Below, piece by piece: positions 17,075 to 20,602 of a DNA stretch of 24,179 bases. A program made the position numbers and the translations under genes. Origin of the DNA: a virus (Duplodnaviria; Heunggongvirae; Uroviricota; Caudoviricetes); the IMG/VR virus record IMGVR_UViG_2711768048_000001; one strand, written 5' to 3'. The notes below the pieces were generated by a model. The model saw nothing but the letters and a program-made list of their open reading frames with translations, made no database searches and was not told the DNA's origin. Numbering within the stretch: the stretch's first letter is position 1; each line of letters opens with the position of its first letter.

Positions 17075-18808
17075 TTAAAGCGAGCGGATCCCATAGGACT
17101 CAATGTGGTCAGACAGCGTGTCTTCTTTCTCGTACAGCATGGCTCTGCCAACCGCCATAATCAGCGCAACTGCACCATCGATTTTGTTTTCCGCCTGCTC
17201 TTTGACGGGCTTCACCACATCATCGTTACCTGGCATGTTTTTGCCGACCACATTGCCGATACACCAGGTCATGATGGGATTGCCGTCATGATGAAAGCGT
17301 CCCGATTCAATCGCTGCCTCCAGCTCTTTCATCGGGTCGGACATATTGGCGAAGTTCTGGACGATAGTAACGGGATTCAGGTCTTCATCAGCAAGGTCAT
17401 GTGACAGCCCGGTCGCTCCGAAAGGGTCGATGGGTGACTCACTGACCGGGCTGATTTTGTTCGCCGCTTTGGCCTCTTCGAGGATGTAGCGATAATCCAC
17501 CTCTGCACCATCGGTAACGGTCAGAACGCCCATTTCCACCCATTTCTGAAAGCGTTCGGCTGTCCGTCGATCTTCATTTTTCTCGACGCTGTACACCGTG
17601 TCATACGGTACCCAGAAACGCGGGGCCACACTGTAGTAATGCGTTTTACCGTCAATCTCGCGGGTATAAAGTCGCGCCATGCTGTTCATATCCAGCTTAC
17701 GCGCCAGGTCAAAGGCCAGAATGCACGGCTGCCCCTCGAACTGCTCAAGGGTCAGTGATTTATCCTCGCAGCTCTGCCAGCTCACCAGGTTGAAATACGC
17801 CGAACGTGCCGACACCCAGATATTGAGGTGTTTTGTTTTAAAGACGTTTGCCAGACGGGCGTTATTTTTCGCACGCTGCTGCTGACTTAACAAAAATTCG
17901 CGATAAACCGACACGCCAATATTTGGATTGGCTTTTTCCAGCACCTGCGGGTCGGTCCAGTCGTCACCTTCATCAACGGTATAGATGATCCCGAACAGTT
18001 CATCGTTGGGCACCGAGCCGTTGAGCATCTCGATGACTTCCCGCCGCTTGTCGTAGCACGGCCCCTCAATGTTGTACCCGGCGGTAGTGATAGCCCACAT
18101 CAGTGGCTGACGTCGCGCCCCCATCCCGGTAAGCATCGTGGTGTAAAGCGCATCTGTGGCGTGCTCGTGATATTCATCCACCACCGCACAGTGGGGTGAT
18201 GAACCATCACCGGGGTTACCGATCAGCGGTTCAAAACGCGCACCATCCTCCGGACGGTTCATGTTTGAGGCGTTAACCTCAATCCCGAACGCTTCCGTCA
18301 GCATGGGTGTGCGTTTACACATCAGTCTTGCCGGACGAAAGACTTCCCATGCCTGTTTCTCCGTCGTGGCACCGGAATACACTTCCGCGCCGAACTCGTT
18401 ATCACAGGCAAAACAATACAGGGCGACACCGGCAGAGATTGCCGATTTGCCGTTCTTACGGGGGATTTCGGTATACACCTCACGGAAGCGGCGCAGCCGG
18501 GAGCCTTTATTGACCCAGCCAAACGCGCAGCAGATCACAAAGAGCTGCCACGGCTCCAGCGTGATGGGCATCCTCTTAAATGCCCACTCACCCTTGGTGT
18601 GCGGCAACAGCTGAATAAATTTGGCGGCCCGTTCAGCCAGGTCCTTGTCGAAGCGGTAACGAAACGACTTACTTTTTTCCGCCATCAGGTCATCAAGATG
18701 GCGCTGGCAGGCCTGAATCACAAACTGGCAGGCCACAATCTTTCCGCGCACGACATCCCGGGCATACTGATTGGCAGCATTTACGTTGGGGTAAGATTTC
18801 CGGCTCAT
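17075..18808 (-). CDS. Terminase large subunit
   Basis: 577 aa directly after the small terminase, with ATPase and nuclease domain organisation typical of TerL. Confidence 0.85.
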
Positions 18809-18821
18809 GATTCGATGATTT

Positions 18822-19316
18822 TCAGATTGTCAGAAACGGGTTAGTGGCTTTCTTCTTCCCCGCCAGGCCAATCAGACGCTGGCGGCTGCTGGGGTCGAGT
18901 CCGAGCATTGCCCCCGTGCTGCTCATCTCGGACTCCTGTTCTTTTTTGGCGGTCAGCTCCGGATTTTTGACCATGCCACCCATTGCACCGGTGATGGTGT
19001 TACCCTGTCTGGCAATATTTTTCACGGCACGTCGCCAGAACTCATAGGCCACACACCACCGCTCAAGTACCGCCAGGTCAGTCACGCACAGCAGGCCCTG
19101 ACCGCAGAGTTCTTTGGTTGTCAGTTGCCACATGATCGTGGCGAGAGGGAGATCTTCTTCAGCGAACCACTCCGGTGGCTCAACACCTTTGATGGGCGTA
19201 AAAACAGGTTCATCTTTATTCAGGGCTCGCTTGCCGGGGTTTCCGGCCAGCGCCTTGCGCGCCGTTGGCTTGGGGCGACGCCCGGAACGCCCCGCCGTTC
19301 CAGCCATATGCGGCAC
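18822..19316 (-). CDS. Terminase small subunit (P27 family)
   Basis: Start is probably the ATG at 19307 ([14 protein letters not shown]…); the track ORF begins at a GTG at 19316. Basic N-terminus, immediately upstream of TerL. Confidence 0.75.
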
Positions 19317-19357
19317 TCCAGGTTAAATTTCATTTTTCGCGGGTATAAAAAAACGAT

Positions 19358-19406
19358 GGGGCGGGCAGTCCGGAAGACGTCAGGTCACAGAGATTTGACC
19401 CGCCCC
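19358..19406. other. Candidate cos region: inverted GGGGCGGG repeats flanking a 33-bp spacer that contains GACGTC
   Basis: ggggcggg at 19358..19365 and its reverse complement cccgcccc at 19399..19406, in the HNH-terS intergenic region where HK97-type phages place cos; an A-tract lies to the left. Confidence 0.35.
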
Positions 19407-19432
19407 TCCCCTCAGGCAGTTGAGAATCATTA

Positions 19433-19783
19433 TCACTTCAACCGTTCACGGGCCGTCTTCGCCTTATGACACGGCCAGCACAGACTCTGCAGATTACAGT
19501 CGGCATCAGTGCCGCCATGCGCTTTAGGGATGATGTGGTCAACGGTTTTCGCCTCACGTACCACACCACCACGCAGACATAACTGACACAGGCCTTTGTC
19601 ACGCTTCAGTACACGTTCACGGATAGCATCCCATTTCGAACCGTAGCCGCGCTGATGACGGGACTGGCCTGGCTTGTATTGCCTCCAGCCTTCGCTTTTG
19701 TGGCTTTCGCAGTAGCCTGACGGGTCTGTGGTGGTATGGCGGCAGCCACGAACACGGCAGGCTTTTGGGATTCGTGATGGCAT
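19433..19783 (-). CDS. HNH endonuclease (packaging-associated)
   Basis: C-terminal HNH motif (…TVDHIIPKAHGGTDADCNLQSLCWPCHKAK…) plus an upstream Cys/His cluster. Likely start is the ATG at 19783 with a GGAG ribosome-binding site; the track ORF extends to 19882. Confidence 0.8.
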   Translation of the reverse strand: MPSRIPKACRVRGCRHTTTDPSGYCESHKSEGWRQYKPGQSRHQRGYGSKWDAIRERVLKRDKGLCQLCLRGGVVREAKTVDHIIPKAHGGTDADCNLQSLCWPCHKAKTARERLK

Positions 19784-19870
19784 ATGTACTCCAATGAAGA
19801 AGCCACCGACATAGCCTCCTCCATTCATCGTGAAACTATTTTCATCTACCCAGTAATGAATTCTTTGTAG

Positions 19871-19925
19871 AGTTGTGATCAATACAACTCACTAATGGAG
19901 AGGCTTGTCCAACACGTTGGACAAG
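19871..19925. repeat. Two adjacent perfect inverted repeats (gagttgt-N7-acaactc and cttgtccaac-ac-gttggacaag)
   Basis: Read directly at 19871..19891 and 19904..19925; no convincing U-tract on either strand. Confidence 0.6.
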
Positions 19926-20005
19926 TTTCCTGTTTGATTTACTGGACACTATAGAAGGACAGAATGCCTTCATCACTCGAATAACATCAATTAAGGAGGT
20001 TCAAC

Positions 20006-20128: not shown

Positions 20129-20308
20129 TCCCCGCTTTATCCAAATTGCATTGCCAGAATGCCGACAACAGACTGACATTCAAATCCTGACTACCTCCAA
20201 TAGTCTGACCGTACACCTATATAGTTTTAATTTTCATCAATCCATTTAACTATCGTTTAATTGTTGTCACATAGGATTCTGCCGTTTTTAACAATGCAGG
20301 ATAATAAG

Positions 20309-20602
20309 ATGAAAAAAATGTTGTTTTCTGCCGCTCTGGCAATGCTTATTACAGGATGTGCTCAACAGACGTTTACTGTTGGAAACAAACCGACAGCAGT
20401 AACACCAAAGGAAACCATCACCCATCATTTCTTCGTTTCGGGAATTGGACAGGAGAAAACTGTTGATGCAGCCAAAATTTGTGGCGGCGCAGAAAATGTG
20501 GTTAAAACAGAAACCCAGCAAACATTCGTAAATGGATTGCTCGGTTTTATTACTTTAGGCATTTATACTCCGCTGGAAGCGCGGGTGTATTGCTCACAAT
20601 AA
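20309..20602 (+). CDS. bor: Bor lipoprotein (lambda Bor / Iss family, serum-resistance moron)
   Basis: 97 aa MKKMLFSAALAMLITGCAQQTFTV… with lipobox LITGC; close to lambda Bor as I remember it; convergent with Rz, as in lambda. Confidence 0.9.
   Translation: MKKMLFSAALAMLITGCAQQTFTVGNKPTAVTPKETITHHFFVSGIGQEKTVDAAKICGGAENVVKTETQQTFVNGLLGFITLGIYTPLEARVYCSQ

Follow-up and report, generated by a model that had tools for sequence, protein, structure and literature searches.

The region analysed here occupies 116 bp (positions 19317-19432) of a 24,179-nucleotide viral sequence, IMG/VR record IMGVR_UViG_2711768048_000001, which in its full length we refer to as the window. It is intergenic, with the stop codon of an HNH endonuclease gene on one side and the start of a small-terminase gene (terS) on the other. 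The flanking HNH, terS and large-terminase (terL) genes share the minus strand, which is the sense strand of the phage, and follow one another as HNH, predicted cos site, terS, terL:

19433-19786, minus strand: HNH endonuclease gene, a gp74-like packaging accessory nuclease (Pfam HNH, 5.4e-15)
18822-19307, minus strand: small-terminase gene terS, P27 family (Pfam PF05119 Terminase_4, 2.4e-21)
17075-18808, minus strand: large-terminase gene terL, HK97 type (Pfam TerL_ATPase and TerL_nuclease, PF03354 and PF20441)

The HNH protein is similar to HK97 gp74 (BLASTP E=3e-10) and to the solved HNH endonuclease PDB 5H0M (E=4e-12), and a phmmer comparison of TerL with the PDB identified the HK97 large terminase (6Z6D_A, E=6.2e-26 over residues 112-556). 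Beyond terL lie genes for a portal, an S78 prohead protease, an HK97-fold capsid and a tail sheath; on the other side lie lysis genes and bor. The mechanical list of open reading frames starts terS at a GTG at 19316, while relatives are annotated from an ATG equivalent to that at 19307, which gives a protein of 161 amino acids; a GGAG stands 8 nt before this ATG. Opposed in orientation to the late genes, the bor lipoprotein gene (20261-20602, plus strand; Pfam Lambda_Bor, 1e-30) is a moron-like insertion near cos, flanked by the Rz/lysis cassette and the HNH gene. In the interval that separates bor from the HNH start, positions 19900-19929 of the plus strand carry a hairpin with a 13-bp stem, GAGGCTTGTCCAACACGTTGGACAAGTTTC, that leads into a T-rich tail; on this strand it has a terminator-like score, with nothing obvious upstream of it.

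The initial annotation had proposed a cos site in this region on the basis of a pair of inverted elements, a central GACGTC and an A-tract to the left. The inverted elements were found as described, GGGGCGGG at 19358-19365 and CCCGCCCC at 19399-19406, complementary at 8 of 8 positions with 33 nt between the arms. The A-tract corresponds to A7 at 19347-19353 and, the genes being on the minus strand, its leftward position is downstream for the phage. GACGTC is likewise present, at 19375-19380, but is not central: its midpoint (19377.5) lies about 4.5 nt away from that of the repeat (19382).

We then assigned the virion ends of the window's element by homology to the ends of its relatives. A regional megablast led to SfV-like phages, several of whose linear records end within this intergenic region, and their end-to-start junctions were rebuilt. 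The virion DNA termini of SfI have been sequenced directly and, set against the prophage sequence, they leave a gap of 10 nt, 5'-TGCCCGCCCC-3' (PMC3636060). This 10-mer is the reverse complement of window positions 19358-19367, so that the left GGGGCGGG arm is the cohesive end itself. In the text below, a slash within a sequence marks a cut or a record boundary. The linear SfI record ends ...GGACTGCCCGCCCC/GTCG; its end reads ...CCGGACTGCCCGCCCC and its restart GTCGTTTTTTTATACCCGCG, where the minus strand of the window reads ...CCGGACTGCCCGCCCC ATCGTTTTTTTATACCCGCG. In phiP27, a GenBank misc_feature labelled 'cos-site' (10 nt, CGCCCGCCCC) occupies, column for column, the same columns as the window 10-mer, and a cohesive end of the form YGCCCGCCCC is present in the window's own HNH-terS intergenic region. 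In the PhageTerm-corrected record of Edwardsiella phage EPP-1 the last bases are ...CTGCCCGCCTC and the first are CCCCAATTTTTATGACCGCG, which puts its ends at the same column as the window cut. Finally, the HK97 genome ends (...GACCGCCGCCAAA / GTTTGAATTT...) align to this cut without gaps, with the GAC-YGCC core at the same offsets and with the same distance from the cut to the conserved upstream box described below (the G-box).

On this basis, the predicted nicks lie at 19358/19357 on the phage sense strand and at 19367/19368 on the other strand, which would leave a 10-nt 3' overhang. We infer the 3' polarity because recessed 5' ends produce such a gap in run-off sequencing, and because HK97 carries 10-nt 3' overhangs (PMC11331095, PMC9410871). 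The left end of the virion genome is accordingly predicted to start at 19357, toward terS, and the right end to finish at 19358. A scan of IMG/VR for contigs ending at the cut, made by means of the downstream box described below, returned mostly prophage-derived contigs and no informative ends.

Two database records are placed differently. SfV (U82619.2) and SfIV (KC814930.1) are linearised at GACGTCT/TCCGGAC, 17 nt upstream of the mapped SfI end; this boundary corresponds to window 19374/19375, within a non-conserved spacer. It would conflict with our assignment of the cut if it were experimental, but the boundaries of these records are probably not physical termini. The SfV cos mechanism is called 'postulated' in the SfI paper (PMC3636060), and the SfIV paper, which reports no terminus mapping, recognised the cos site from its sequence, as the same one that SfI, SfII and SfV carry.

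Taken together, the region 19317-19432 is very probably the cos site of an SfV/SfI/phiP27-like prophage whose head and packaging module are of the HK97 type and whose tail is contractile. The proposal of an HK97-type cos between the HNH gene and terS that defines the virion genome ends is thus upheld, the ends being those assigned by homology to SfI, phiP27, EPP-1 and HK97. This cos may nevertheless be intact in a prophage that is itself defective, in which case there would be no ends of an active phage to define and the site could still be used by a helper phage with the same terminase specificity. Many prophages are cryptic, such prophages are very common in E. coli, and the window is a 24-kb fragment with the remainder of the element outside view. 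Against this, the terS, terL, HNH, portal, protease, capsid, sheath and lysis reading frames are all full length, and the corresponding region of the deposited phage vB_EcoM-720R4 shows 99.4% identity. The window's prophage is thus probably active, and we regard a defective one as a minority possibility.

The elements that we distinguish within and beside the intergenic region are the following, with offsets counted from the sense-strand cut:

19421-19435, no strand assigned: 7-1-7 palindrome TGAGAAT-C-ATTATCA, -78 to -64, overlapping the HNH stop codon, upstream of the G-box and separated from it by 9 nt
19389-19411, minus strand: upstream G-box, GGGGAGGGGCGGG plus TCAAATCTCT, -54 to -32, a conserved block that includes the right arm of the inverted repeat (19399-19406)
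19368-19388, no strand assigned: variable 21-nt spacer holding GACGTC (19375-19380), its length kept and its sequence mostly not
19361-19371, minus strand: nick-site core GGAC/YGCC(S)(S)C, -14 to -4, defined by conservation over 37 loci
19358-19367, minus strand: cohesive end (cosN overhang) 5'-TGCCCGCCCC-3', by identity to the SfI 10-nt end and by alignment with the phiP27, EPP-1 and HK97 ends
19325-19353, minus strand: downstream block, +5 to +33, consisting of a T7 tract, A, TACCCGCG, A5 and TGAAATTT, conserved from +6 to +33 and including the A-tract mentioned above

The SfI, SfV, SfII, SfIV and phiP27 cos regions lie in the same place, between the HNH stop codon and the terS start, and carry the same G-box and downstream block as the window. 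The intergenic DNA of the window is 90-99% identical to that of SfI, SfII, SfV, SfIV and vB_EcoM-720R4 and 77% identical to that of phiP27, and its terS is 98% identical to that of SfI. The SfI cohesive end is identical to the window's TGCCCGCCCC, whereas that of phiP27 differs in its first base. The window departs from the SfI group by only a few substitutions in the stretch from the HNH stop codon to the G-box, and it has an A at +1 where SfI has a G.

These elements were compared over a wider set, made up of the regions downstream of HNH homologues at 45 genome loci (L019-L063) together with phage records. A match to GGGGAGGGGCGGGTCAAATCTCT with at most 5 errors was found downstream of the HNH homologue at 37 of the 45 genome loci; these 37, the window and the phage records comprised 45 distinct sequences, reduced to 37 by redundancy filtering. 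Across the filtered set about 95 nt aligned almost without gaps, with strong conservation of the G-box, the GGAC/YGCC core and the downstream block; that of the G-box is partly circular, the loci having been located by a fuzzy match to it, and the other blocks and the fixed spacing are independent of this choice. The alignment covers Escherichia, Shigella, Edwardsiella, Citrobacter, Klebsiella, Photorhabdus, Xenorhabdus, Providencia, Serratia, Pantoea, Haemophilus, Halomonas, Burkholderia and Pseudomonas, in addition to HK97. Among 80 IMG/VR occurrences of the downstream box, 63 are accompanied by the exact TGCCCGCCCC and 77 by the G-box at fixed spacing, and one single spacing is common to 74 of the 80.

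Within the 37 non-redundant loci, conservation is high in the nick-site core (A-12, 0.97; C-11, 1.00; G-9, 1.00; C-8, 0.95; C-7, 0.95). The complementary-strand nick (-11/-10) falls inside the most conserved AC/YG, and the surroundings of the sense-strand nick, from -2 to +5, are poorly conserved. The spacer has low information content at most positions between -31 and -15, with C-27 (0.95) and C-21 (0.78) conserved; in phiP27, EPP-1, the Klebsiella phages and HK97 it differs in sequence and has the same length. The G-box 23-mer GGGGAGGGGCGGGTCAAATCTCT occurs once in the window, where none is expected even if 3 mismatches are allowed. HK97 has GGGCAGGGGGGGGGATCAAATCT in its place, and the distance from the end of TCAAATCT to the cut is 33 nt, as in the window. 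The G-box is a candidate cosQ-like element or a candidate recognition element for TerL/HNH.

The same alignment bears on the reading in which the inverted repeat is itself the functional unit, either bound by a symmetric protein on both GGGGCGGG arms or extruded as a cruciform, with cleavage at or near the central GACGTC. The arms do form a perfect 8/8 repeat, members of this cos family generally have a G-rich element upstream and a C-rich cut site, and the SfV and SfIV GenBank records begin and end at GACGTCT/TCCGGAC, inside the spacer. However, the ends of SfI, phiP27, EPP-1 and HK97 all lie at the left arm, and the arms do not covary: over 23 diverse loci and eight pairs, 68.3% of cells were paired, compared with 68.7% in column shuffles and 52-66% in slid controls, and double changes were not in excess. 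A perfect inverted repeat of at least 8 bp also arose in 5.7% of 3000 dinucleotide-preserving shuffles of the 116-bp region. Nor are GACGTC and most of the spacer conserved: the hexamer, which had been taken as part of the site, falls where conservation is lowest, and phiP27, EPP-1, the Klebsiella phages and HK97 all lack it. The inverted repeat does not hold up as a functional element, one arm being the overhang and the other belonging to a separate conserved upstream box, with pairing between them that shows no covariation; this reading is by now largely refuted, and we give it very little credence. What exceeds chance is the conservation of the block around each arm rather than the bare repeat, and the repeat is perfect in the window's subgroup because a G-rich box lies upstream of a C-rich nick site.

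Least credible of all is a role for the region in transcription or as RNA (for example as a terminator, attenuator or structured RNA) in place of DNA packaging: the minus-strand RNA can fold into a GGGGCGGG/CCCGCCCC helix with a U7/A5 hairpin (minimum free energy -31.8 kcal/mol), but such an energy is unexceptional (z = -0.87; equalled or bettered by 45 of 200 shuffles), the pairing lacks covariation, an Rfam search of the region with E up to 1 gave no match, and no promoter-like or terminator-like sites were found within the intergenic region.

Returning to the cos site, the downstream block follows a common pattern in the alignment (T tract, A, YACCCGCG, an A-rich sequence and AAATTT), and its type varies with the terS clade while the G-box and nick core stay constant throughout. 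Blocks of the type ACCCGCGAAAAATGAAATTTAA accompany terS proteins at least 78% identical to that of the window, ACCCGCGAAATTAAAAATTT accompanies relatives at 43-49% identity (phiP27, Pseudomonas, Haemophilus, Halomonas), and CGCCGCAGGTTAGAAAAC accompanies the phi467-type terS. Because block type follows terS clade in this manner, we assign the downstream block to terS, as a likely binding site analogous to cosB; the G-box and core would then belong to the conserved TerL/HNH pair. We also observed one and the same G-box and nick core combined with at least 4 downstream blocks, each with its own terS lineage (L018, which is phi467, and L031, L036, L039 and L042). This pattern suggests recombination between the specificity determinants on the HNH/terL side and those on the terS side, exactly at the cut region.

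In HK97, the minimal terS site extends from +15 to +29 and includes an essential A/T tract (PMC11331095); furthermore, stalling and termination at cos require terS, and cleavage is stimulated by gp74 (PMC11331095, PMC9410871). Read from the HK97 genome ends, positions +15 to +29 are CTAACCCGATTTTTT, and the window counterpart is TATACCCGCGAAAAA at +11 to +25. The window terS has no detectable similarity to HK97 gp1 (BLASTP E=6.4; probability 0.15% in an hhalign comparison of a 26-sequence P27-family alignment with one of HK97 gp1, in which the profile on the HK97 side was shallow, the IMG/VR relatives of gp1 all being at least 91% identical), and the mechanism of terS-DNA recognition in HK97 is therefore transferred here by analogy only. 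Sequence searches found no solved relative of the window terS, and a single-sequence AlphaFold2 model was poor (pLDDT 40.6, pTM 0.21).

The likeness to HK97 extends over the rest of the module. The TerL proteins belong to the same family, and a gp74-related HNH gene is adjacent to cos in the window. The two sites align gaplessly, with a G-run and TCAAATCT ending 33 nt before the cut, the GAC-YGCC core, and a downstream A/T tract with ACCCG; the terS ATG lies at +50 in HK97 and at +51 (19307) in the window. In contrast, the aligned HK97 overhang is CGCCGCCAAA rather than TGCCCGCCCC, the ACCCG/T-tract is offset by 4 nt, the window terS (PF05119) is of a sequence family other than that of gp1, and the HK97 HNH gene ends about 320 nt before the cut, compared with about 76 nt in the window (66 nt upstream of the overhang start). 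By the tested features except terS family, and with its overhang polarity predicted from relatives, the window cos falls in the HK97-type 3'-cos class.

With the cos of lambda (cosQ-cosN-cosB) the window shares a three-part logic, in which an upstream termination element, a nicking site and a downstream small-terminase site follow one another beside terS, and the nicking site is G+C-rich in both. The lambda overhang is a 12-nt 5' overhang, GGGCGGCGACCT, and lambda uses other terminase families with no HNH partner, whereas the window has a PF05119 terS and a PF03354 plus PF20441 TerL that are not of the Nu1/gpA type. No match to GGGCGGCGACCT with up to 2 mismatches was found in 19317-19432, and the two that occur elsewhere in the window are no more than chance would give. 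The resemblance of the GC-rich motif to the lambda cohesive end, to which the initial annotation had drawn attention, is thus one of composition: the sequence does not match, the terminase is of the HK97 type, and overhang length and polarity differ. Separately, the HK97 nick core GGCGGCGGTC, on the strand opposite to terS, matches the lambda cohesive end GGCGGCGACC at 8 of 10 positions, with inverted orientation to the small-terminase gene; this may be a coincidence of G+C-rich sequence.

A further feature is the palindrome at the HNH stop codon. The 7-1-7 consensus of the Fur box is TGATAATnATTATCA, and the palindrome TGAGAATCATTATCA (other strand TGATAATGATTCTCA) fits this motif at 13 of 14 specified positions. 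It is single in the window, where 0.01 occurrences are expected, and a copy with at most 2 mismatches is present within 60 nt upstream of the G-box in 16 of the 37 non-redundant loci, compared with 0.1% of shuffled controls. Many enterobacterial loci, and HK97 as well, have similar palindromes 3-14 nt upstream of the G-box, sometimes in duplicate (for example L031 and L033). No promoter-like site was found near the palindrome, and we call it putatively Fur-box-like by the form of its motif. A limited search of the literature, with key older papers outside it, found no description of the G-box or the palindrome, and a string search gave only unrelated matches, all of them without the G-box string.

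These elements can be arranged in a provisional scheme for packaging. By analogy with HK97, the P27-family small terminase would bind the T-tract/ACCCGCG/A-tract block 5-33 bp downstream of the cut, and thereby position or stall the HK97-type large terminase. The large terminase and the HNH protein would then nick both strands, at the GGAC/YGCC core and 10 nt further, and these staggered nicks would leave the 10-nt 3' overhang 5'-TGCCCGCCCC-3' (19367-19358). The G-box at -54 to -32 would be met first by a motor reaching the genome end, and probably serves, as lambda cosQ does, to bring about termination or to position the nuclease. As a tentative generalisation, which we think somewhat doubtful as a whole, Proteobacteria may have in common a modular, HNH-associated HK97-type cos of about 115 bp, in which TerL/HNH read an invariant G-box (GGGGAGGGGCGGG-TCAAATCTCT) and the GGAC/YGCC core as a cosQ-like signal for termination and nick positioning, the part read by an interchangeable terS is confined to the downstream block, and the Fur-box-like palindrome of Enterobacterales may recruit a dimeric factor of host or phage origin.

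The region is carried by 1118 of 5426 complete E. coli genomes (~21%). The cos site of the SfV/SfI/phiP27 group had already been published, and the call made from the window alone was correct but ordinary. The virion ends are now fixed for a prophage type found in about one-fifth of complete E. coli genomes, which leaves current understanding unchanged and should aid annotation, the delimitation of prophages and the prediction of packageable or mobilisable DNA. There were two minor gains: the point at which the database records of SfV and SfIV are opened turned out to lie 17 nt from the SfI end as mapped, and HK97 was found to share the conserved upstream box with a large and diverse family, so that a cosQ-like function could be tested in the HK97 in vitro packaging system. 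The shared cos architecture, including the Fur-box-like palindrome, offers a modest lead. Finally, we note that a further IMG/VR record, IMGVR_UViG_2711768073_000020 (L239), carries two complete junctions of HNH end, cos and terS start, at 3440-3600 and 6310-6470, which lie 2.87 kb apart and differ in few bases; these paired junctions may reflect a duplication, adjacent prophage remnants or a misassembly.
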